From Escherichia coli (GTDB lineage Bacteria; Pseudomonadota; Gammaproteobacteria; Enterobacterales; Enterobacteriaceae), in NCBI RefSeq assembly GCF_003334335.1, contig NZ_QOWQ01000062.1: 12,071 bases of DNA; one strand, given 5' to 3'. A program made the translations under genes and the position numbers. The stretch's first letter is position 1; each line of letters begins with the position of its first letter. The notes under the pieces were generated by a model. That model was not told where the DNA came from. It did no database searches and saw only the letters and a list, made by a program, of their open reading frames with translations. Below are positions 1,591 to 12,071 of the stretch, piece after piece.

Positions 1591-2418
1591 TTAAACTTGG
1601 GGAAGTATTTTTTTTGCAAAATCAATAGTTTCTTTGTGGTTGGATGCAGGTATATGATTTATTTTCTTAGCATCCATAGTTCTCTTTATGATGTCAATAA
1701 CTTTGCTTTGGCCTGAGTTTGGTGATTCAGGAGTTTCAATTGTGAATAAAATGTCATCAAGTGAAAGCAGGTTTTCTTCTGCTGCTCGAGTTATTCTCAT
1801 CACCCAAGTATCACTATGCTCCATCATTTTTCCTGGTTCAGCTTGAGTGAATGCCAGAGGTTTGATGGCACATTGGATCCTGTCATGCTTCTTGGCGACC
1901 AATGGCATTGAGAACTTTGCGAAATACCCATCAATGGTTGCTTGTTTGAAGACGTTCTTCAATCCATCTATTCTATCTATACTTCGTTTTAGCTCTCTGG
2001 CTAGAACATCTTCACGGCGCTCTTTTGTGTAGTCAGAGTGGTTTACATATTTATTGTAAATGCGGGCCAGCTCTTCTTTTGGGTTTTCGCTGAGAATCAC
2101 TCTCGTAGAACTGAACTGAAAAATTGATTCTTTTTTGTTTGTAAAATATCTGAAGAATTGTGCAAGTTGTTGATGTCCAACAATCTGGGTCGCATGCATT
2201 TTTGCGAACTGTAGTTCTCTTTGTATTGAGTCTTTTGCTACAGGGAAAATACAATCATCATGGAAAAAATTCTTTACACGAGAGTCATTTCGCTTTGTGA
2301 GCTGGAAATCAAAGTAATTTTCTTTTGGCGCGCACAGAAGTACGCCTATGTTTGCGAACTCTTCAGTCTCCGCATAAGGCGCATAGCGAACGATGCTATA
2401 TAGGCATGGAGTTGTCAT
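1591..2418 (-). CDS. DUF3037-like protein of unknown function, second gene of the rex-position cassette
   Basis: ORF track 1591..2433 begins at a TTG. The first ATG (2416-2418) overlaps the upstream gene's TGA (ATGA overlap) and is preceded by GGAG. The N-terminal motif CLYSIVRYAPYAETEEFANIGVLL resembles the DUF3037 signature as I remember it. Visibly AT-rich compared with flanking phage core genes. Confidence 0.5.
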   Translation of the reverse strand: MTTPCLYSIVRYAPYAETEEFANIGVLLCAPKENYFDFQLTKRNDSRVKNFFHDDCIFPVAKDSIQRELQFAKMHATQIVGHQQLAQFFRYFTNKKESIFQFSSTRVILSENPKEELARIYNKYVNHSDYTKERREDVLARELKRSIDRIDGLKNVFKQATIDGYFAKFSMPLVAKKHDRIQCAIKPLAFTQAEPGKMMEHSDTWVMRITRAAEENLLSLDDILFTIETPESPNSGQSKVIDIIKRTMDAKKINHIPASNHKETIDFAKKILPQV

Positions 2419-3164
2419 TCTATTGCGCTCCAAAATTCATCACAATCACCTTTGTCTAGCGTAGTGCAGACAAAAGGTAAAAACTCCTCATCTACTATCC
2501 ACTCTTCTGGAATTTCGTCAAGGATAGCAGGAAGCTTGTGTAAACTGTTAACGACCCTCTGGCGGTACTCTACGCGATCCACTAAATCATATTGCCATTT
2601 GCGGTTACCAGGGCCGTACACGTGCACAGAAAAATCTTCAGGTCCAGCATTCTGATCAAATGAGAGATTATGGTCAATCAGATAATACTTATCGTTACTG
2701 ATGTCATAAAGGATGTTAACGTTTCCACCTTTGTCAGTAAGCGTTCTGTCTGCATTTAATATCCATTTATCAAAAACATAGATTAATTTTTGCTGTTCGA
2801 CTGGGATGATCGTTTCGTTTCTTGACTGCGTAAACGTTAACGCTATTGCACCGTCAATGAACAATGAAGCAAAGGCATATCCTGTACAAATTTGTTGCTG
2901 CAGATCAGGTGAGTACTCTATAAGTTCCTCTGGCACAAATACGATTTTAAAGTCAGGTAAAGGAAGGCCGATATCATTAGCCAAACACGCCGAAATGAAC
3001 TCAGCTAAGAGATTTTTCGGGGGCATTGATGGTTTTGACTTCAAAACATACAACTGCCCATCATCACATTTGCAAAGAAATGGCTGAGTGGAACCTTCAT
3101 TGATGCGACGTATTACTTCAACGACATTAGGTATTGCACTATTGCTGCTCGCTACGCACTCCAT
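2415..3164 (-). CDS. HipA-like kinase-fold protein (putative Ser/Thr kinase), first gene of the rex-position cassette
   Basis: ORF track 2415..3167 begins at a GTG; the adjacent ATG at 3162-3164 has an AAGGGT Shine-Dalgarno. The motif FDKWILNADRTLTDKGGNVNIL resembles the HipA-family catalytic loop (h-h-N-x-D-x-H/R ... N), and LIDHNLSF could be the DFG-equivalent metal-binding motif. The family call is from memory, not a search. Confidence 0.45.
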   Translation of the reverse strand: MECVASSNSAIPNVVEVIRRINEGSTQPFLCKCDDGQLYVLKSKPSMPPKNLLAEFISACLANDIGLPLPDFKIVFVPEELIEYSPDLQQQICTGYAFASLFIDGAIALTFTQSRNETIIPVEQQKLIYVFDKWILNADRTLTDKGGNVNILYDISNDKYYLIDHNLSFDQNAGPEDFSVHVYGPGNRKWQYDLVDRVEYRQRVVNSLHKLPAILDEIPEEWIVDEEFLPFVCTTLDKGDCDEFWSAIE

Positions 3165-3286
3165 CACTAACCCTTATGTGATTCAAGTCTTCCATCTCAT
3201 TACTCCGCATCTCAAAGAGCGGTTTAACACTGCGTGTTTAAAGAAAAACAACAGGCCTATTGCTGTAACTGTTTTTTAGCCTCACT

Positions 3287-3976
3287 TTAACCATGCTTCC
3301 TATATGTCTGCGGCATGCTCCCAATAACCTTACCGAAGATGAACACCCGGTTCATCTCGTCTTTCTCGATCGGGTCCCACGGTGAGTAGCTTTTGTTATC
3401 AGAGATGACCAGCAGCTTATCCTTCATCATTTGCAGGCGCTTTACATGGGCTGTGTCGTCGTACAGAAACGCATAGATACCATCACCGTCGAAAGATTTA
3501 ACTGTGATATCAACGAACAGCAGATCACCTGGTTCGATCGTTCCTGACATGCTGTCACCACGCACGTTAATGATGCGGATATTTTCCGCCTTCCTACCAT
3601 CGAACATGTGACGAGCATCGTCAAACGAGTACTCAACCGAGCGTAGAACTTCTACAAACTCACGGTTGATGACTCCCGGCCCAGCACTGACTTCTATATC
3701 AAGAACGTCAATCTTGAAGTATTTGGAATGGCTGACAGTTGATTGTATTGGTTGCACTGTACTGTCTGACATATTTCCAACGCCAGAAGATAACCATTCT
3801 GCGCGCACACCCAAAGCGTTCGCGATCTCCACGATTTTAGTTGTTTGATTAGCTTTCCCTGTTTCGATTTTCTGAATAGCAGCTTGGCTAACCCCGACCA
3901 AATCCCCAAGCGCCTTTTGTGTAAGGCCTCGCGCTAATCTGGCTTCTTTAAGTCTTTCTGAGAGTGTTGTTTTCAT
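3287..3976 (-). CDS. cI: CI-type prophage repressor: N-terminal HTH (XRE family) plus C-terminal S24 LexA-like autopeptidase domain
   Basis: Translation from the internal ATG: MKTTLSERLKEARLARGLTQKALGDLVGVSQAAIQKIETGK (HTH), then GDSMSGT (Ser nucleophile motif) and AHVKRL (catalytic Lys). The ORF track's 22-codon upstream extension is unlikely. No Shine-Dalgarno precedes the ATG, which fits a leaderless PRM transcript as in lambda. Confidence 0.85.
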   Translation of the reverse strand: MKTTLSERLKEARLARGLTQKALGDLVGVSQAAIQKIETGKANQTTKIVEIANALGVRAEWLSSGVGNMSDSTVQPIQSTVSHSKYFKIDVLDIEVSAGPGVINREFVEVLRSVEYSFDDARHMFDGRKAENIRIINVRGDSMSGTIEPGDLLFVDITVKSFDGDGIYAFLYDDTAHVKRLQMMKDKLLVISDNKSYSPWDPIEKDEMNRVFIFGKVIGSMPQTYRKHG

Positions 3977-4080
3977 AGTCCAAATGTACAACCAAGGTTT
4001 TATTCCATCAAACGAAAATGGTTGTTGACTAAAAACAACCATAGTTTTAATCTTGATTCAAATTAACCACGGAGGTTGTT
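3977..4080. promoter_or_regulatory. OR region with divergent PRM (leftward, cI) and PR (rightward, cro) promoters and operators
   Basis: PR candidate on +: TTGACT (4025-4030), 17-nt spacer, TAATCT (4048-4053). PRM candidate on -: TTGATG, 17 nt, TACATT ending about 6 nt before the cI ATG. Operator-like repeats: 17-mer AAAACAACCATAGTTTT (4032-4048) and inverted repeat GGTTGTT...AACAACC (4020-4040). Confidence 0.6.
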
Positions 4081-5006: not shown

Positions 5007-5936
5007 ATGGCAAACACTGCTGAGATATTCAATTTTCCAGTGCCGGATGCGGCACAAAAGGAGCCGCGCGTGGCAGATCTCGATGATGGTTATACGCGCA
5101 TTGCAAATGAGTTGCTGGAAGCTGTGATGCTGGCCGGATTAACACAGCACCAGCTTCTGGTCTTCCTGGCTGTCATGCGCAAAACATATGGCTTTAATAA
5201 AAAACTGGATTGGGTGAGCAACGAGCAACTTTCCGAGTTAACCGGGATATTGCCGCACAAGTGTTCTGCTGCAAAAAGCGTTCTGGTAAAGCGTGGGATT
5301 TTTATTCAGAGTGGGCGGAATATCGGCATTAATAATGTGGTCAGTGAATGGTCAACATTACCCGAATCAGGTAAGAAAAATAAAGTTTACCTGAAAGAGG
5401 TAAATTTACCTGAATCAGGTAAGAAAAGTTTACCCAAATCAGGTAAAGGCGTTTACCCGAATCAGGTAAACACAAAAGACAAACTAACAAAAGACAATAT
5501 AAAACCTTTTTCGTCCGAGAATTCTGGCGAATCCTCTGACCAGCCAGAAAACGACTTTCCTTTGGAGAAACTGGATGCTGCAATTCAGAGCGGCAGCAAG
5601 TGGGGGACAGCAGAAGACCTGACCGCCGCAGAGTGGATGTTTGACATGGTGAAGACCATCGCGCCCTCAGCCAGAAAACCGAATTTTGCAGGGTGGGCTA
5701 ACGATATCCGCCTGATGCGTGAACGTGACGGACGTAACCACCGCGACATGTGCGTGCTGTTCCGCTGGGCATGCCAGGACAACTTCTGGTCCGGTAACGT
5801 GCTGAGCCCGGCTAAACTTCGCGACAAGTGGACCCAGCTCGAAATCAATCGTAACAAACAACAGGCTGGCGTGACAGCCGGAAAACCAAAACTCGACCTG
5901 ACAAACACTGACTGGATTTACGGGGTGGATTTATGA
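5007..5936 (+). CDS. O: Replication initiator O (mosaic: divergent N-terminal iteron-binding domain, lambda-type C-terminus)
   Basis: From the internal ATG at 5007 (GGGAGG Shine-Dalgarno): MANTAEIFNFPVP...VADLDDGYTRIANELLEA...RKTYGFNKKLDWVSNEQLSELTG aligns with lambda O. The C-terminus ...DNFWSGNVLSPAKLRDKWTQLEINRNKQQAGVTAGKPKLDLTNTDWIYGVDL is near-identical to lambda O. The track's upstream start at 4917 is probably an artefact. Confidence 0.9.
   Translation: MANTAEIFNFPVPDAAQKEPRVADLDDGYTRIANELLEAVMLAGLTQHQLLVFLAVMRKTYGFNKKLDWVSNEQLSELTGILPHKCSAAKSVLVKRGIFIQSGRNIGINNVVSEWSTLPESGKKNKVYLKEVNLPESGKKSLPKSGKGVYPNQVNTKDKLTKDNIKPFSSENSGESSDQPENDFPLEKLDAAIQSGSKWGTAEDLTAAEWMFDMVKTIAPSARKPNFAGWANDIRLMRERDGRNHRDMCVLFRWACQDNFWSGNVLSPAKLRDKWTQLEINRNKQQAGVTAGKPKLDLTNTDWIYGVDL
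5356..5510. repeat. Replication origin inside O: about five palindromic iterons followed by an AT-rich stretch
   Basis: Repeats of TTTACC-N6-AGGTAA at about 5359-5375, 5386-5403 (degenerate), 5405-5423, 5428-5446 and 5452-5470, each with internal dyad symmetry (TTACC/GGTAA), then AT-rich 5471-5510. This is the lambda-type ori architecture. Confidence 0.85.
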
Positions 5937-6634
5937 AAAACATCGCCGCACAGATGGTTAACTTTGACCGTGAGCAGATGCGCCGGATCGCCAACAACAT
6001 GCCGGAACAGTACGACGAAAAGCCGCAGGTACAGCAGGTAGCGCAGATCATCAATGGTGTGTTCAGCCAGTTACTGGCAACTTTCCCGGCGAGCCTGGCT
6101 AACCGGGACCAGAACGAACTGAACGAAATCCGCCGCCAGTGGGTTCTGGCTTTCCGGGAAAACGGGATCACCACAATGGAACAGGTTAACGCAGGAATGC
6201 GCGTAGCCCGTCGGCAGAATCGACCATTCCTGCCATCACCCGGGCAGTTTGTAGCCTGGTGCCGGGAAGAAGCATCCGTTATTGCCGGACTACCAAACAC
6301 CAGCGAGCTGGTTGATATGGTTTACGAGTATTGCCGGAAGCGTGGCCTGTATCCAGATGCAGAGTCTTATCCATGGAAATCAAACGCGCACTACTGGTTG
6401 GTTACCAACCTGTACCAGAATATGCGGGCCAATGCGTTGACTGACGCGGAATTACGGCGCAAGGCTGCCGATGAACTGTCCTGTATGAACGCGCGAATTA
6501 ACCGTGGTGAGGCTATACCTGAACCAGTAAAACAACTTCCTGTCATGGGCGGTAGACCTCTAAATCGTGCACAGGCTTTGGCGAAGATCGCAGAAATCAA
6601 AGCTAAGTTCGGACTGAAAGGAGCAAGTGTATGA
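5933..6634 (+). CDS. P: Replication protein P (DnaB helicase loader)
   Basis: MKNIAAQMVNFDREQMRRIANNMPEQYDEKPQVQQVAQIINGVFSQLLATFPASLANRDQNE... is near-identical to lambda P. ATGA overlap with the O stop. Confidence 0.95.
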   Translation: MKNIAAQMVNFDREQMRRIANNMPEQYDEKPQVQQVAQIINGVFSQLLATFPASLANRDQNELNEIRRQWVLAFRENGITTMEQVNAGMRVARRQNRPFLPSPGQFVAWCREEASVIAGLPNTSELVDMVYEYCRKRGLYPDAESYPWKSNAHYWLVTNLYQNMRANALTDAELRRKAADELSCMNARINRGEAIPEPVKQLPVMGGRPLNRAQALAKIAEIKAKFGLKGASV

Positions 6635-6924
6635 CGGGCAAAGAGGCAATTATTTATTACCTGGGGACGCATAAGAGCTTCTGTGCGCAGGACGTTACCG
6701 CGGTAACAGGCGCAACAGTAACCAGCATAAATCAGGCTGCGGCTAAAATGGCGCGGGCAGGAATCCTGGTCATTGATGGTAAGGTCTGGCGAACGGTGTA
6801 TTACCGGTTCGCTACCAGAGAAGAACGGGAAGGAAAGGTGAGCACGAATCTGATTTTTAAGGAGTGTCGCCAGAGTGCCGCGATGAAGCGGGTGTTGGCG
6901 ATATATGGGAGGACTACAGCATAA
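6631..6924 (+). CDS. ren: Ren
   Basis: MTGKEAIIYYLGTHKSFCAQDVTAVTGATVTSINQAAAKMARAGILVIDGKVWRTVYYRFATREEREGK... matches lambda Ren. Confidence 0.9.
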   Translation: MTGKEAIIYYLGTHKSFCAQDVTAVTGATVTSINQAAAKMARAGILVIDGKVWRTVYYRFATREEREGKVSTNLIFKECRQSAAMKRVLAIYGRTTA

Positions 6925-7003
6925 GCATAACTTATGGATTATATGGAAAACTGGTAATTATGCTCTTTTCTTATGAAAATAAAGAGAAGTTTTCGCTGGC
7001 GTT

Positions 7004-7402
7004 TTATTTGTTCTGTTTTTTCTTGCGGGTTATTCTGATTTGTTTTGATTTGATTTTTTCTGACAAAAGTAGGGAAAAAATATGTCGCAAGTACTTTCTG
7101 TCTTTACCTCCTAAATTACATTCTCTATCAAATGTTGCCATAGTTATGACCCCAGTTTTATATAGTGTTTCAGCAATTTTTCTGTAGTTTTTTTCTCGCA
7201 AAATTGAAGAGTTTTTCTTTGCTGTATTTTCAAGGCTATCTCCTTGTGGTTTAAGACTATTTGGGCCAAAAAACGTTGTGGATACTGCTGCACTTGTTGT
7301 CCGTTTTTTTTGGCCCATTTGGATAGTACTTGGGAGAGGCATGATTTTAATACGCATATAAATAACTCCTCTATCAATTGGATTTTGGGAAAATGTTAAC
7401 AT
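7004..7402 (-). CDS. Hypothetical lysine-rich protein, translationally coupled to the upstream RHH gene; alternative internal start at 7357
   Basis: 132-codon ORF in a strongly AT-rich segment, which is unlikely by chance. Its ATG (7400-7402) overlaps the TAA of the upstream RHH gene (TAATG). Basic C-terminus IKSKQIRITRKKKQNK. No family recognised. Confidence 0.55.
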   Translation of the reverse strand: MLTFSQNPIDRGVIYMRIKIMPLPSTIQMGQKKRTTSAAVSTTFFGPNSLKPQGDSLENTAKKNSSILREKNYRKIAETLYKTGVITMATFDRECNLGGKDRKYLRHIFSLLLSEKIKSKQIRITRKKKQNK

Positions 7403-7719
7403 TAATCATGATTAAGGAGTAATTTTAAATCTTCCAATAAAATTTGTTTAAACTCTTGTGTTCTATGATCGATATACAACGCAAGTTTGCTTGCATTATC
7501 TTCCAGGTCACGTATCTCTCTGTCACCTCGAATAAACCCAACTAAATTTAAACGTTTAGATAGTTCAGAACTTCCTTCTATGGCATCTTGGAGTATTTGA
7601 ATGATTTCTGAATTCATTGAGCGCCCGTTTCGTTTGGCTCGTTCAGCTATAGCTTCACGCATCCCATCGGGGAAACGGAGGTTAAACTTATCGTAGTCTT
7701 TTACTTGTTTGTCAGCCAT
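7402..7719 (-). CDS. Mnt-like ribbon-helix-helix (Arc/MetJ fold) repressor with C-terminal extension
   Basis: From the ATG at 7717-7719: MADKQVKDYDKFNLRFPDGMREAIAERAKRNGRSMNSEIIQILQDAIEG resembles the P22 Arc/Mnt N-terminal domain (FNxRxP...NGRSMNSE). The track's longer start at 7749 lacks a Shine-Dalgarno. Confidence 0.7.
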   Translation of the reverse strand: MADKQVKDYDKFNLRFPDGMREAIAERAKRNGRSMNSEIIQILQDAIEGSSELSKRLNLVGFIRGDREIRDLEDNASKLALYIDHRTQEFKQILLEDLKLLLNHD

Positions 7720-7740
7720 TGGAACCCCCAAAAAAATGAA

Positions 7741-7810
7741 TGGTGCCATATTGCCACATCAATTCAATGGTGGCATTATGGCCTCATGGTGTCATTGTGG
7801 CCTCATGAGG
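7741..7810. promoter_or_regulatory. Divergent promoter/operator region with three ~19-bp tandem repeats between the two RHH genes
   Basis: TGGTGCCATATTGCCACA (7741-7758), TGGTGGCATTATGGCCTCA (7768-7786) and TGGTGTCATTGTGGCCTCA (7787-7805), plus palindrome CCTCATGAGG (7801-7810). These are likely RHH operator sites. Confidence 0.5.
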
Positions 7811-7818
7811 TTATGTCA

Positions 7819-7977
7819 ATGGAAAAGAAAGAGGTAAAAATTACCCTTCGCTATCCGCAAAAAGTGAAGGATGAATTCAAGCGAATTGCTCAGGAGGAAG
7901 GGATGTCTGAGAACGCAGCTATTGTTCAGGCGCTTGTATGGGCATTGAAATTTAGAGCACGGATACATGCTCGCTAG
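7819..7977 (+). CDS. Arc-like ribbon-helix-helix small repressor
   Basis: From the ATG at 7819 (GAGG 8 nt upstream): MEKKEVKITLRYPQKVKDEFKRIAQEEGMSENAAIVQALVWALK has the beta-strand then two helices typical of Arc/CopG. 52 aa, against 53 for P22 Arc. Directly upstream of the antirepressor. Confidence 0.6.
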   Translation: MEKKEVKITLRYPQKVKDEFKRIAQEEGMSENAAIVQALVWALKFRARIHAR

Positions 7978-8047
7978 AAACAGCGAAGCCCCACTGGCGG
8001 CAACCTTAGGGGCTTCTATCGAAAATAACCGCGAAGGAAATATCGAC

Positions 8048-8716
8048 ATGAGTATTGTAGCAACATCAGATCTGAACTTCCAAGGTGAAGCACTAGTGCC
8101 AGTGGCAAATATTGCCGGAATATGGCTAACTTCATCCAACCTAGCAAGAGCACTGAAGTATTCGAATAGTCGCGCAGTCACGATGATTTACAACAAATAT
8201 GCTGACGAATTTTCCAGTAGTATGACTAGAGTGCTTGAAGTCAGTACCTCAGAGAATGATGTCGAGGTACTTGATCTGAGTACCTCGAAAAGTACTCGAA
8301 ACTTGAAGAAGAAAGTACGTGTTTTCTCTCTCCGCGGAGCCCATTTGATCGCCATGTTCGCCCGCACTCCTGTAGCCAAAGAGTTCCGCCGTTGGGTTCT
8401 GGATATTCTCGATCGAGAAGTTCAACAATCCCCAATCATAAAACAATTCACTGATAACGAACTTTGCACACTTGCTTGGTTATGGCGAGCAGGGGATGTG
8501 ATGTTAACCGCCTGCCAGAATGTTACTCCACTTCTTCAGGTTGCGGAGCACCGCGAAGCTGGTCGCTTTACTTCTATCGGGCAAGAATATCCCCAGATAC
8601 TACATAAGGCGCGCGAAATCCTTGCCAGAGAAACGGCACATGTAAAACTCCAGCCTTGGCAGGATAATAAGTGGAGCAGGGTGTTGCCATATTTCCGTCA
8701 GAATCTGTTGCAATAA
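8048..8716 (+). CDS. ant: Phage antirepressor (Ant; AntA/Bro-N-like N-terminal domain)
   Basis: From the internal ATG at 8048 (GAAGGAAA Shine-Dalgarno): MSIVATSDLNFQGEALVPVANIAGIWLTSSNLARALKY...KKVRVFSLRGAHLIAMFARTPVAKEFRRWVLDIL has Bro-N/AntA-like motifs. It follows the Arc-like gene as in P22 immI. Confidence 0.65.
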   Translation: MSIVATSDLNFQGEALVPVANIAGIWLTSSNLARALKYSNSRAVTMIYNKYADEFSSSMTRVLEVSTSENDVEVLDLSTSKSTRNLKKKVRVFSLRGAHLIAMFARTPVAKEFRRWVLDILDREVQQSPIIKQFTDNELCTLAWLWRAGDVMLTACQNVTPLLQVAEHREAGRFTSIGQEYPQILHKAREILARETAHVKLQPWQDNKWSRVLPYFRQNLLQ

Positions 8717-8735
8717 AGTCACTAGTTAGAAATAC

Positions 8736-8776
8736 TGCCAGCATTCTACGATAACGGAAGTGCTGGCATTTTTTGG
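8736..8776 (+). terminator. Rho-independent terminator downstream of ant
   Basis: Stem TGCCAGCA (8736-8743) / TGCTGGCA (8761-8768), followed by TTTTTT (8769-8775). Confidence 0.6.
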
Positions 8777-8954
8777 GGTAATGTGCGAGTCCATTTCATA
8801 AAATACGGGTGCTGTAAACTGGACGAAATAATCTAAAAGATACCATTACCAGTAGCATTTAAATCGCTATGTGCCGATACGGATAAAATTATATTGATTG
8901 TTCACATACCTTATTGGATATTACTGAGGGGTATTTATATAAGGTGTAACGATA

Positions 8955-9461
8955 ATGTGGAACTTTGACAGTGCCGACTTAAGTGCAATAGCAGCAGGCA
9001 TTTCTGCGTTTGGCACATTAGCCGCAGCGGGGTCGGCGCTTGCAAGTTGGTACACGTCAAAACAAGCGCTGCAGCTACAAAATAGAGTTTACCTTTATGA
9101 GTCTTTAAAGGCTTGCGCTGAGAGAGCCAATACATCAGCTAAAGATAAGCGCGGATCTGAATGGAGCGTTAATGATGCAGCGGATATCATCAGGTGCCTG
9201 GTACGGGCGATGGAGATCATCAAGCAGGATAGCCAGCAGAAAGAAGGTAATCAGGCATTAATGTTGAAACAGTACTTTGTTAATCTGCTAATAATGGAAC
9301 TGTACGAGGAAGTTCATAACGGTGATGCGGCTGTTTCTGTTTTTAAAAGTACGGAACCTACACAAGTACTTGATAACTTATGGAACAAATGGCAGGAGGC
9401 TATAGCTTTTTTTGATATTTGGAATTACCCAGTTGTGACTGAGGAAGACTTGGCAGACTAA
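8955..9461 (+). CDS. Hypothetical protein with a predicted N-terminal transmembrane helix (moron-like)
   Basis: 168-aa ORF with AAGGTG Shine-Dalgarno. The N-terminus LSAIAAGISAFGTLAAAGSALASWY is hydrophobic; the remainder is hydrophilic. Preceded by about 180 bp of AT-rich non-coding DNA after a terminator. No family recognised. Confidence 0.6.
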   Translation: MWNFDSADLSAIAAGISAFGTLAAAGSALASWYTSKQALQLQNRVYLYESLKACAERANTSAKDKRGSEWSVNDAADIIRCLVRAMEIIKQDSQQKEGNQALMLKQYFVNLLIMELYEEVHNGDAAVSVFKSTEPTQVLDNLWNKWQEAIAFFDIWNYPVVTEEDLAD

Positions 9462-9655
9462 TTTTCAGCACATTTGATTTCCCATAATCAACCAGCCATA
9501 ATCATGCCATTGGAGCTTGAACAACTCCGGTGACTTCTGCGCTAAACGGGGACGTTTATGCGCACATACAATCTAAACTCTCTTCTCCCTTCACAGATGC
9601 AGAAATGCATCTGCGATTCTCTGCATCCAACGTTTGACCTCTGCGGAGGTGAAGC

Positions 9656-10111
9656 GTGAACCTCCCACAAGACGGCATCAAATTACATCGCGGCAACTTC
9701 ACCGCTATCGGCCAGCAGATCCAGCCTTATCTGGAGGACGGAAAATGCTTTCGCATGGTGCTTAAACCGTGGCGTGAGAAACGCAGTCTTTCCCAGAATG
9801 CACTCAGCCACATGTGGTACAGCGAAATCAGTGAATACCTCATCAGCAGGGGGAAATCGTTCGCTACCGCAGCATGGGTAAAAGATGCTCTCAAACACAC
9901 ATACCTCGGTTATGAAACCAAGGACCTGGTTGATGTCGTAACCGGCGAAATCACTACTATCCAATCGTTACGCCATACCTCCGATCTTGATACCGGAGAG
10001 ATGTATGTCTTCCTGTGTAAGGTTGAAGCCTGGGCGATGAATATTGGCTGCCACCTGACTATTCCGCAGAGCTGCGAGTTCCAGCTGCTGCGCGACAAGC
10101 AGGAGGCGTAA
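9656..10111 (+). CDS. ybcN: NinB/YbcN-family protein (DLP12 YbcN-like, recombination or DNA-binding)
   Basis: GTG start at 9656 with a strong GGAGG Shine-Dalgarno. The protein [58 protein letters not shown]... is what I recall as DLP12 YbcN, and it carries a NinB-like RSLSQN motif. Confidence 0.7.
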
Positions 10112-10281
10112 TGGCTACACCGCTTATTCGTGTCATGAACGGACACATCTACAGAGTACCAAATAGTCGTAAGCGTAAGCCTGAGCTGAAACCATCCGAA
10201 ATACCAACACTGCTCGGATATACCGCCAGCCTGGTTGATAAAAAATGGTTGCGACTGGCAGCAAGGAGGAATCATGGCTGA
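10111..10281 (+). CDS. ninE: NinE-like small protein
   Basis: Not in the ORF track (56 aa). ATG at 10111 overlaps the ybcN stop. Translation [56 protein letters not shown] resembles lambda/DLP12 NinE. Confidence 0.65.
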   Translation: MATPLIRVMNGHIYRVPNSRKRKPELKPSEIPTLLGYTASLVDKKWLRLAARRNHG

Positions 10282-10564
10282 TTTGAGAAAAGCAGCGCGT
10301 GGTCGGGAATGCCAGGTAAGAATCCCTGGCGTATGTAATGGCAATCCTGAAACGTCAGTACTGGCACATATCCGGCTGGCTGGATTGTGCGGTACCGGTA
10401 TCAAACCGCCAGACCTGATTGCCACCATTGCATGTTCTGCCTGTCACGACGAAATCGACCGCCGCACACATTTTGTCGATGCTGAGTATGCAAAAGAATG
10501 CGCGCTGGAAGGTATGGCGAGAACACAGGTTATCTGGCTGAAAGGGGGGGTTATTAAGGCGTGA
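10274..10564 (+). CDS. ybcO: YbcO-like DUF1364 protein (Cys-rich, putative zinc-binding nuclease-like)
   Basis: From the ATG at 10274 (AGGAGGA Shine-Dalgarno): [64 protein letters not shown]; 96 aa. Sits between ninE and rusA as in DLP12. Confidence 0.7.
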
Positions 10565-10923
10565 ATACCTACAGCATCACATTACCCTGGCCTCCGAGCA
10601 ATAATCGCTATTACCGCCATAATCGCGGGCGCACGCACATCAGCGCAGAGGGGCAGGCATACCGCGATAACGTCGCCCGAATCATTAAAAACGCAATGCT
10701 GGATATCGGCCTGGCTATTCCTGTGAAAATCCGCATTGAGTGCCACATGCCGGATCGCCGTCGCCGTGACCTGGATAATCTGCAAAAAGCCGCTTTTGAC
10801 GCACTCACTAAAGCAGGTTTCTGGCTGGATGATGCTCAGGTCGTTGATTACCGCGTTGTGAAGATGCCTGTTACCAAAGGTGGGAGGCTGGAACTGACCA
10901 TCACCGAAATGGGGAATGAATGA
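10561..10923 (+). CDS. rusA: RusA Holliday junction resolvase
   Basis: [100 protein letters not shown]... matches E. coli RusA. GTG start overlapping the ybcO stop. Confidence 0.9.
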
Positions 10924-11060
10924 TGTTTGAGTTTAATATGGCAGAACTTCTTCGCCACCGCTGGGGGCGTCTGCGCTTATATCGTTTCCCCGGTTCTGTT
11001 TTGACCGATTACCGAATACTGAAGAATTACGCCAAAACACTGACAGGAGCAGGAGTATGA
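10923..11060 (+). CDS. ylcG: YlcG-like small protein (45 aa)
   Basis: Not in the ORF track. ATG at 10923 overlaps the rusA TGA. Translation [45 protein letters not shown]. Same position (rusA to Q) as ylcG in DLP12. Confidence 0.55.
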   Translation: MFEFNMAELLRHRWGRLRLYRFPGSVLTDYRILKNYAKTLTGAGV

Positions 11061-11145
11061 AGTCAGAGATAACAATCAACTAATACTGTTTTGTTGATTT
11101 TTGCTTGTAATTGGCGTTCTGGTCTGAGTTTTGTGGAGTAAGTTG

Positions 11146-11526
11146 ATGCGTGATATTCAGATGGTTCTTGAGCGTTGGGGAGCGTGGGCTGCAAGTGGTA
11201 ACACCGGGGTGGACTATTCTCCGATCGCTGCCGGATTCAAAGGACTTTTACCATCTGCCACTAAACCACGTCCGGCCTGCTGCGATGATGACGGACTTAT
11301 CATTGAAAACTGTCTTGCTCGTCTGAAGCAGAAAAAACCTGAGGAGTATTCGCTTCTCATTGCTCATTATTTGTTGCGAATATCAAAAAGACAGATAGCC
11401 AGGACGAGAAAGAAAAGCGAAAAAGCAATACGAATTGAGATGCAGATAGCCGAAGGGTTTATTGACGGATGTTTGTCTGTGCTGGGGGTAAGACTGGAGA
11501 TGGACGACTGGCTGCTAAAAAAGTAA
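11146..11526 (+). CDS. Q: Late antiterminator Q (QuuD/phage 82-type)
   Basis: From the ATG at 11146 (GGAG Shine-Dalgarno): MRDIQMVLERWGAWAASGNTGVDYSPIAAGFKGLLPSATKPRPACCDDDGLIIENC... resembles DLP12 QuuD. Followed by a tR'-type terminator. Confidence 0.8.
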   Translation: MRDIQMVLERWGAWAASGNTGVDYSPIAAGFKGLLPSATKPRPACCDDDGLIIENCLARLKQKKPEEYSLLIAHYLLRISKRQIARTRKKSEKAIRIEMQIAEGFIDGCLSVLGVRLEMDDWLLKK

Positions 11527-11593
11527 AAAATGATTAGTGCGGTCCGCAAAAAGTATGTCAGTATGTTAAGAGTGGTTACTTCGCCACACAGCT

Positions 11594-11620
11594 TAAACCC
11601 GCCGCGAGCGGGTTTTTTTA
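11594..11620 (+). terminator. Strong rho-independent terminator (tR'-like), probable end of the short PR' transcript that Q reads through
   Basis: AAACCCGC-CGCG-AGCGGGTTTTTTT at about 11594-11620: GC-rich stem followed by a 7-T run, about 70 nt downstream of the Q stop. Confidence 0.8.
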
Positions 11621-11741
11621 TGGCTGAAATCGGTCCAGTACAGTAAACGTGCTGGTGGCGGTGAATACCTGTCTTTCAGCTTGCTGGCTTTTTCGACAAG
11701 AGTTATTGGTGTGTCACGTTAACCGGAAAAGGGAAAAAGAC

Positions 11742-11939
11742 ATGCTAAAACAGCAGGATATGACAGAAACCGCCAGAGTGGTGTTTAATGAATTAAGTGC
11801 CACCGAACCGGCGACAGTCGGGGAGATTGCGCAGAATACTTACCTTTCACGCGAACGCTGCCAGTTAATACTGACCCAGCTGGTTATGGCGGGTCTGGCA
11901 GACTATCAGTTCGGTTGTTACAGACGCCTTCCGCAGTGA
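11742..11939 (+). CDS. Hypothetical small protein (65 aa) in the post-Q late-region moron position
   Basis: ATG at 11742 within track ORF 11649..11939. Translation MLKQQDMTETARVVFNELSATEPATVGEIAQNTYLSRERCQLILTQLVMAGLADYQFGCYRRLPQ. An intrinsic terminator overlaps its stop codon. Confidence 0.45.
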   Translation: MLKQQDMTETARVVFNELSATEPATVGEIAQNTYLSRERCQLILTQLVMAGLADYQFGCYRRLPQ

Positions 11940-11951
11940 AGGCTTTTTTAT
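11926..11951 (+). terminator. Rho-independent terminator overlapping the stop of the small ORF
   Basis: Stem GCCTTC (11926-11931) / GAAGGC (11938-11943) with a 6-nt loop, followed by TTTTTTAT. Confidence 0.55.
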
Positions 11952-12071
11952 TTGTGGTAAATGGGCGGCTGGTGGGTGTGGTGGTTGTTGCTTTCCCGTT
12001 GCTGAAAAAGAAAGCATCAGGCGATTAGCAGGGTATCAGTTACCCGTTGAAATTTTTAAATACCTCACAAT

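Follow-up and report, generated by a model that had tools for sequence, protein, structure and literature searches.

The immunity I (immI) region of phage P22, reportedly set out by Sauer et al. in 1983, consists of a leftward maintenance-repressor gene (mnt) that is divergent from the arc-ant operon, which encodes a further regulator, Arc, and the antirepressor Ant. Both regulators are members of the Arc/Mnt family; Mnt ends in a helical tetramerisation domain and Arc has about 53 residues. The divergent promoters Pant and Pmnt overlap and bear the operators. A small RNA, sar, is antisense to the ribosome-binding site of ant; its 5′ end abuts the ant start codon and its promoter is located inside ant. 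The P22 immunity I region is the 'ant moron' of the P22-like phages (Villafane et al. 2008; PMC2629481). Here we describe a segment of Escherichia coli DNA (positions 7402-8775 of the window, a 12,071-nucleotide (nt) stretch of assembly GCF_003334335.1, contig NZ_QOWQ01000062.1) that is probably a complete antirepressor cassette of the immI type, homologous to P22 mnt-arc-sar-ant.

Antirepressors are also found in the Gifsy phages, N15 (AntC) and 186 (Tum), and these share with the window cassette a proposed end effect, the non-covalent inactivation of a prophage repressor. They differ from it in their control, which is exerted by LexA in the Gifsy, N15 and 186 systems and, as proposed for the window cassette, by Arc/Mnt-type repressors together with an antisense RNA.

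Results

Comparison with the P22 immunity I region

The gene order and strands of the cassette are those of P22 immI, with a leftward mnt-like gene divergent from an arc-like gene and ant (Table 1). An initial annotation of the window had proposed that the locus reproduces the logic of immI (mnt, arc, ant), and this is supported by the gene order, the protein families, a sar-like RNA and a near-identical spacing of the elements. The distance from the start of the −35 hexamer of the predicted ant promoter (Pant) to the arc start codon is 68 nt both in the window (7751 to 7819) and in P22 (14793 to 14861), arc is 159 nt long compared with 162 nt in P22, and the gap between arc and ant is 70 nt compared with 68 nt. 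The candidate sar promoter (Psar) lies 6-35 nt into ant in the window and 6-34 nt into ant in P22 (15097-15125, with the ant ATG at 15091). A hairpin followed by six uridines is found approximately 19 nt after the ant stop codon, and the annotated P22 terminator is also 19 nt after it. A small open reading frame (ORF) is present downstream of mnt in both phages, orf117 in the window and orf59a in P22.

The two cassettes also differ. The window cassette occupies the ren-ninB interval of the early-right operon in a lambda-like genome, whereas that of P22 belongs to the late operon and is flanked by genes 16 and 9 (tailspike); the position between gene 16 and the tailspike gene by which the ant moron of P22-like phages is recognised is thus not the one found here. 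The N-terminal domain of Ant is Bro-N in the window and P22_AR_N in P22, the Mnt-like protein has 105 amino acids (aa) compared with 83 aa for Mnt, and unlike P22 the window cassette is without sieA. The repeated ATGGTGNCAT..GGCC elements of the window, its putative operators, are unrelated in sequence to the Arc and Mnt operators of P22.

The Mnt-like and Arc-like proteins

The divergent pair of ribbon-helix-helix genes put forward in the initial annotation was confirmed, both proteins matching Pfam Arc on either side of the intergenic region (Table 1), and the homology searches that it called for assigned the leftward protein to P22 Mnt and the rightward protein to P22 Arc. The Mnt-like protein shares 47% sequence identity with P22 Mnt over 49 aa of the DNA-binding domain (BLASTP, E 1e-14), and its top match in the Protein Data Bank is 1MNT (1.7e-8). 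A ribbon-helix-helix DNA-binding domain occupies the N-terminus (residues ~7-51), and the C-terminal tail that follows it (~55 aa) aligns only weakly with the corresponding part of P22 Mnt. In a single-sequence AlphaFold model (overall predicted local distance difference test (pLDDT) score of 50), helices are placed in the tail at residues 68-102 with an unreliable pLDDT of ~45. The ATG at 7719 is the preferred start, with a G-run resembling a Shine-Dalgarno sequence 5 nt upstream.

The Arc-like protein shares 36% identity with P22 Arc over 45 aa (BLASTP, E 2e-9). Its top matches among solved structures are Arc variants (9e-7 to 5e-4), and it also matches the PHROG Arc-like repressor (4.4e-9). 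In the source record the mnt-like and arc-like genes are labelled hypothetical; the exact cassette proteins are already present in public databases as 'Arc family DNA-binding protein', on hundreds of Escherichia contigs.

A sar-like antisense RNA

The spacer between arc and ant is occupied by a match to the Rfam sar family, a feature that the initial annotation had missed. The 5′ end of this sar-like RNA abuts the ant ATG (8048), and the RNA is antisense to the ant leader, whose AAGGA Shine-Dalgarno sequence (8034-8038) it covers. The window DNA aligns with the arc-ant spacer and first ant codons of P22, and both the terminator stem (GAAGCCC...GGGCTTC) and the context of the ATG are conserved between the two. 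The RNA is predicted to fold into two hairpins (z −2.45), with the anti-Shine-Dalgarno sequence in the loop region of the 5′ hairpin and the 3′ hairpin (7985-8016) forming the terminator. Of nine related cassettes, six gave this match at the equivalent position, two of them scoring above the Rfam gathering score (51.4 and 44.6 bits), and the terminator stem contains four compensatory pairs across eight sequences. The only other Rfam match, BSnc120 at E 4.7, was discarded as noise. By analogy with P22, the sar-like RNA would be transcribed and would repress translation of ant. As judged from the sequence, the sar homologue and the P22-identical spacing appear to strengthen the assignment to immI.

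The ant gene and its start

The initial annotation had placed an antirepressor gene after arc. This holds for the C-terminal part of the protein and for its family, with matches to P22_AR_C (PF10548; 9.5e-15, model positions 5-73 of 73) and to the PHROG 'anti-repressor Ant' families (2.9e-48), but the N-terminal domain is Bro-N (Pfam, 1.2e-8) and not of the P22 type. In agreement with this, the C-terminal ~100 aa align with P22 Ant (BLASTP, 22% identity over 99 aa, E 9e-6), the Pfam scan gave no P22_AR_N match for the N-terminal half and the BLASTP alignment of that half with the P22 Ant N-terminus was not significant. A search of solved structures with Ant returned only a chance match to a ribosomal protein. 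The GenBank label 'Rha protein' was rejected, as the Pfam scan gave no Phage_pRha match, only P22_AR_C, Bro-N and a weak PH_9; in databases, the protein is named 'P22AR C-terminal domain-containing protein / prophage antirepressor-like protein' and is found on hundreds of Escherichia contigs. These matches suggest that the gene encodes a domain-shuffled antirepressor of the Ant type, its activity being proposed from homology and position.

The initial annotation had Ant starting at 7967, and the NCBI pipeline likewise calls the 249-aa form. We instead consider 8048 the most likely start. It is preceded by a good, conserved Shine-Dalgarno sequence in a conserved ATG context, the ATG is homologous to the annotated start of P22 ant, and distant Ant homologues align from residue 1 of the 222-aa form. 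The frame upstream is closed in P22 and open in most relatives. Between 7967 and 8047 an ATG or GTG at the arc stop codon opens this frame in most related cassettes and is absent from P22; the open frame may give rise to a second, translationally coupled long isoform of Ant or may result from conservation of the sar sequence. Most Ant homologues lack ~15 aa (ENDVEVLDLSTSKSTRNLKK) at the site of an 11-bp tandem duplication within ant (8279-8301).

Table 1 Features of the probable immI-type cassette in the window and the adjacent orf117.
Feature	Coordinates	Strand	Details
orf117	7004-7357	−	Open frame; hypothetical protein of 117 aa called by the NCBI annotation pipeline; downstream of the mnt-like gene
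mnt-like gene	7402-7719	−	105 aa; Pfam Arc (PF03869), E 8.1e-20; PHROG Arc-like regulators
Divergent control region	7720-7818		99 bp; holds the repeats and predicted promoters
R1	7740-7758		Best read as an inverted copy of R2; overlaps the −35 of the predicted ant promoter
Pant-like sigma-70 promoter candidate	7751-7779	+	TTGCCA, 17 nt, CATTAT; TG before the −10
R2 and R3, tandem 19-bp elements	7767-7785 and 7786-7804	+	17/19 match
arc-like gene	7819-7977	+	52 aa; GAGG Shine-Dalgarno sequence at 7807-7810; Pfam Arc, E 1.4e-4
sar-like antisense RNA	7982-8046	−	Rfam RF00262 (sar), 34.0 bits, E 2.3e-4
ant	8048-8716	+	222 aa; N-terminal Bro-N and C-terminal P22_AR_C domains; alternative start at 7967 gives 249 aa
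Psar-like promoter candidate	8054-8083	−	TTGGAA, 18 nt, TACAAT, with TG; within the first 12 codons of ant
Intrinsic-terminator-like hairpin	8736-8774	+	10-bp stem, then UUUUUU; 19 nt after the ant stop codon

The divergent control region

Three tandem repeats of ~19 bp had been claimed for the intergenic region. Two tandem 19-mers, R2 and R3, are present, but the first copy, R1, fits better when inverted. Tandem Repeats Finder detects only 2.2 copies of the 19-mer (7767-7807, 90% matching), and the R2-R3 match was reached in none of 2000 dinucleotide-preserving shuffles of the region. As an inverted copy, 7740-7757 is complementary to 7770-7787 at 15 of 18 positions (83%), a level reached by 4 of 2000 shuffles; as a direct copy of R2, R1 matches at 12 of 19 positions (manual count), and the direct match of 16 nt with 81% identity is shifted to the 5′ side. 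R1, R2 and R3 are three related elements, not three tandem copies. A heptamer, RTGKCMW, occurs five times in the 99 bp compared with ~0.17 expected; the motif was derived post hoc and is descriptive only.

R1 covers the −35 hexamer (7751) of the predicted ant promoter, R2 the −10 hexamer (7774) and R3 approximately +1 to +19. By position, R3 corresponds to the P22 Mnt operator and the promoter spacer (~7756-7776) to the P22 Arc operator. When relatives were compared, R1, R2 and the first half of R3 tracked the Mnt DNA-binding domain, and 7740-7795 hardly varies among cassettes of Shiga toxin (Stx) phages with the same domain; the spacer at 7758-7765 and the second half of R3 vary where the Arc-like protein varies. 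This pattern is suggestive only of a division of the region in which R1, R2 and half of R3 would serve the Mnt-like protein, and the spacer and the other half of R3 the Arc-like protein.

Antirepressor control through an SOS box, as in the Gifsy, N15 and Tum systems, was considered and rejected, with no LexA box (CTGT-N8-ACAG, at most one mismatch) found in 6363-12071.

The ren-ninB insertion site

Positions 6900-9650 of the window are 100% identical over the query to the lambdoid Escherichia phage PhiR5_1 (PV340545.1), a complete phage genome record in which the host is given as E. coli C. The ORF list and the PhiR5_1 annotation agree on a lambdoid layout: exo-bet-gam-kil, a HipA-like/DUF3037 pair, cI-cro-cII-O-P-ren, the inserted segment, and ninB(ybcN)-ninE-ybcO-rusA-ylcG-Q. 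The cI gene (3287-4042) encodes a helix-turn-helix (HTH)/S24 repressor with an S24 domain of the LexA/UmuD type.

The inserted segment is bounded by the end of ren (6924) and the start of ninB/ybcN (9656). An insertion at the ren/nin junction of a lambda-like backbone had been claimed, and it is real, since ren and ninB are separated by 2731 bp in the window compared with 73 bp in lambda and the match to lambda and PhiR26_1 ends at 6908, within the final codons of ren. In the comparison with other phages, homology breaks at 6908, 8330 and 9461-9470. Two features ascribed to the segment stand only in part. It is strongly AT-rich only from 6900 to 7650 (GC content of 32-35%), a stretch that takes in the extra ORF and the mnt-like gene's 3′ half, and less so from 7650 to 8700 (42-47%; flanks 50-57%), and it contains the mnt-like, arc-like and ant genes of the proposed three-gene module together with two more ORFs.

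The small gene downstream of mnt, orf117, has a strong Shine-Dalgarno sequence (AGGAG) 8 nt before its ATG at 7357 and a GC content of ~32%. It gave no match in PHROG, NCBIfam or PADLOC, its protein cluster has 33 members with names from Escherichia only, and a search for a terminator hairpin 3′ of the gene found none that was convincing. By analogy with orf59a downstream of P22 mnt, orf117 may be co-transcribed with the mnt-like gene and is possibly part of the cassette. The source record lacks orf117 and instead has two short ORFs, in different frames, annotated at 7004-7357.

On the other side of ant, a 168-aa ORF of unknown function (8955-9461, plus strand; phrog_1779, 6.5e-99) has its own AT-rich upstream region; it is missing from some otherwise identical cassettes, where homology restarts at 9461-9470. 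A 33-aa cysteine-rich ylcH-like ORF (9558-9659, plus strand) overlaps the GTG start of ninB. In PhiR26_1 ~90 bp of this ORF occur twice, immediately ahead of ninB and again in the variable region that precedes ant, and from its sequence the duplicated stretch looks like a recombination linker bounding exchangeable cargo. In relatives the ren-ninB junction carries a PD-lambda-1 defence gene (PhiR26_1) or a DUF6864 gene with a hypothetical gene (E. coli EF7-18-58); as the cargo differs among relatives, the site is a cargo hot spot.

Two further features of the phage lie outside the insertion. A HipA-like kinase gene and a DUF3037-like gene that overlaps it (1591-3167, minus strand) separate the kil region from cI and are in a rexAB-like position; the GenBank record names them HipA and HipD, and they match the PADLOC candidate defence pair PDC-M66A/B (6e-15 and 4e-16). 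Tandem repeats with a period of 19-23 bp inside the O gene (5358-5470) are the expected iterons of a lambda-type origin.

Relatives and distribution

With the Mnt-like protein as query, 45 loci were retrieved from IMG/VR; in most of them a divergently oriented Arc-like gene or an Ant homologue is present, or the two together. Judged from the flanking genes, related cassettes fall into at least three genomic settings, namely the ren-ninB junction, a tail gene cluster of the lambda type (as in Stx phages) and the interval between P22 genes 16 and 9. The N-terminal domain of the protein in the ant slot is either of the Bro-N type or of the P22 type, and among the Bro-N-type homologues Bro-N is constant while the C-terminal domain is swapped among several types. 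Among 5426 complete E. coli genomes, the full set of regulators was found at 99% identity or more in 5 and the unit of Mnt DNA-binding domain and operators in 292; ~2970 have only the 3′ half of ant and the next ORF at the ren-ninB junction, with other cargo upstream.

In Stx-converting Pankowvirus phages such as Stx2a_WGPS6, 2851 and YYZ-2008, a cassette with the same divergent layout and a weak sar match (29.5 bits) lies between two annotated minor tail protein genes and a C40 peptidase gene. It is ~85% identical in nucleotide sequence to the window over 7582-7801 only, a stretch that spans the Mnt DNA-binding domain, R1, R2 and part of R3. The N-terminal 47 residues of the Mnt-like proteins are ~89% identical, with an identical beta-strand (manual count from the alignment). 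The C-terminal half of Mnt is unrelated to that of the window, the Arc-like proteins are 27% identical, and their Ant, which shares 54% identity with that of P22, is of the P22 type. As the Mnt C-terminus, the Arc-like protein and Ant differ in these phages while 7582-7801 is kept, the putative operators appear to travel with the Mnt DNA-binding domain; this is the best sequence-based evidence for the predicted binding sites of the Mnt-like protein. It is possible, and we propose it only tentatively, that the unit of ~220 bp is exchanged as a self-contained specificity determinant of immI.

The ~2970 E. coli genomes mentioned above and PhiR26_1 have, at the same locus as the window, an orphan Bro-N/P22_AR_C gene labelled 'Rha'. 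From 8330 onwards, over the 3′ half of ant and the 168-aa ORF after it, identity to the window is ~95%; the N-terminal half of Ant has diverged, with 68% identity overall. There is no mnt-like or arc-like gene upstream, the place being taken by cargo such as PD-lambda-1 or the DUF6864 protein. A small ORF upstream of ant in PhiR26_1 was examined as a candidate Arc-like gene and rejected; its product is 15% identical, and its first residues are those of the ylcH-like ORF.

In E. coli 2017.02.03CC, a DLP12-like defective prophage beside argU/intD, from which cI-cro-O-P have been lost, contains the entire cassette (97-99% identity), an antirepressor module without a cognate repressor nearby. A related viral contig (L021, 5037-6411) has several extra Arc/Mnt-like frames in a row beside a second Ant-like gene, an uncommon clustering of ribbon-helix-helix genes.

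Discussion

Proposed regulation

The model below, including its binding sites, the repression, and the activity and target of Ant, is taken from P22 on the grounds of homology and geometry (PMC2629481, PMC8022706 and PMC12922286, together with the work of Susskind and of Sauer). In a lysogen the Mnt-like repressor would bind the predicted repeat elements over the rightward promoter and keep arc and ant silent. On infection of a cell without the Mnt-like protein the promoter would fire, and the Arc-like protein would build up and shut it down again. The sar-like RNA of ~65 nt, transcribed from within ant, would pair with the ant ribosome-binding site and reduce translation of Ant, including that from read-through transcripts of the early-right promoter PR. 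Ant would then bind the HTH/S24 repressor cI of its own or another lambdoid phage and inactivate it without cleavage. As cI has an S24 domain, Ant would be a second route to derepression.

Unlike in P22, the cassette is co-oriented inside the PR operon, and antiterminated read-through would therefore transcribe arc-ant, with sar as the remaining brake. Ant could thus act as a feed-forward commitment factor in an N-antiterminated PR operon, its translation restrained only by sar.

Weighing of the alternatives

Several observations weigh against the identification of the locus as a complete immI-type cassette. The sar match of the window is below the Rfam gathering score of 43. Only in its C-terminal domain does Ant resemble P22 Ant, and with Bro-N at the N-terminus it may differ in target binding; the structural model of the Mnt-like protein gives no reliable C-terminal tetramerisation domain. 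The promoter candidates match the consensus at 9 of 12 positions and are no commoner than in shuffled sequence; for the leftward promoter there are three candidates at 7-8 matches of 12 and none above 8. Comparison of relatives does not assign the repeats to binding by the Mnt-like or the Arc-like protein, and the literature on PhiR5_1 gave no experiment on the phage.

The same circuit might have its main role between phages, with Ant acting in trans on other lambdoid prophages or permitting growth on heteroimmune lysogens. P22 Ant reportedly acts on heterologous repressors (Susskind and Botstein in 1975), and trans-acting antirepressors are also said to have been described by Lemire et al. 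in 2011; both count towards such a role. It is further favoured by the cassette in the DLP12-like defective prophage, where no repressor gene is annotated nearby, by the S24 self-cleavage domain that cI already has, and by the unit of Mnt DNA-binding domain and operator common to Stx phages, which suggests cross-regulation of co-resident prophages. The data do not separate targets in cis from those in trans, and the two roles are compatible; we regard a main role in trans as possible but doubtful. A different function for the third protein, as a Bro-N DNA-binding regulator under Arc/Mnt-type control rather than an antirepressor, would fit its Bro-N N-terminus in place of P22_AR_N, the absence of a relative among the solved structures searched, the GenBank label 'Rha protein' and the swapping of its C-terminal domain among several unrelated types in relatives in which Bro-N is constant. 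The P22_AR_C match is, however, strong, the top PHROG matches are Ant families, the Pfam scan gave no Phage_pRha match, and the gene takes exactly the position of ant, its ribosome-binding site being overlapped by a sar homologue; P22-type and Bro-N-type proteins moreover alternate in this position in related cassettes. A function other than antirepression is therefore unlikely.

Decay of the cassette into an inactive remnant carried by mosaic recombination would be in keeping with the recombination hot spot and its homology breaks (6908, 8330 and 9461-9470), with the ~2970 E. coli genomes that keep only the 3′ half of ant and the next ORF, and with the degraded ant morons documented in P22-like phages (PMC2629481). 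We consider it very improbable, given that the three ORFs, their Shine-Dalgarno sequences, the sar hairpins and the terminator are all intact, that identical proteins occur on hundreds of contigs, and that the putative operators, unlike their flanks, are conserved in Stx phages. That the two ribbon-helix-helix genes are instead a toxin-antitoxin, partition or defence system is hardly credible. The database names 'plasmid stability protein' and 'partition protein ATPase' and weak Pfam matches to FitA and HicB point that way, but such names reflect generic ribbon-helix-helix similarity, and the P22 mnt record bears the same mislabel. The gene content contradicts this explanation, with no toxin, ParA or nuclease partner present; the cassette proteins have no PADLOC match, and NCBIfam gives no defence or toxin-antitoxin assignment.

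Significance

The immI circuit is already known and the locus adds nothing new in principle; it is a well-preserved new example with a chimeric Ant and a predicted operator specificity shared with Stx phages. The position of an immI cassette between ren and ninB is unusual and is not described in the literature that we found. The annotation of the source record can be corrected, as the two 'hypothetical' genes encode Mnt-like and Arc-like proteins, the 'Rha protein' is of the Ant type and the sar-like RNA is unannotated.

The classic P22 immI circuit, including its antisense RNA, appears to move intact into differing lambdoid operons, namely the early-right operon, the tail cluster and the P22 late operon. 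Domains are reshuffled inside the cassette, the Mnt DNA-binding domain travelling with the putative operators and the N- and C-terminal domains of Ant being exchanged separately. A second layer of immunity could alter prophage induction, superinfection immunity and cross-talk with Stx prophages. If the 7582-7801 unit is indeed a shared specificity determinant, PhiR5_1-type and Stx Pankowvirus prophages should silence each other's antirepressor in trans, and the induction of commensal lambdoid prophages would be coupled to that of Shiga-toxin prophages.

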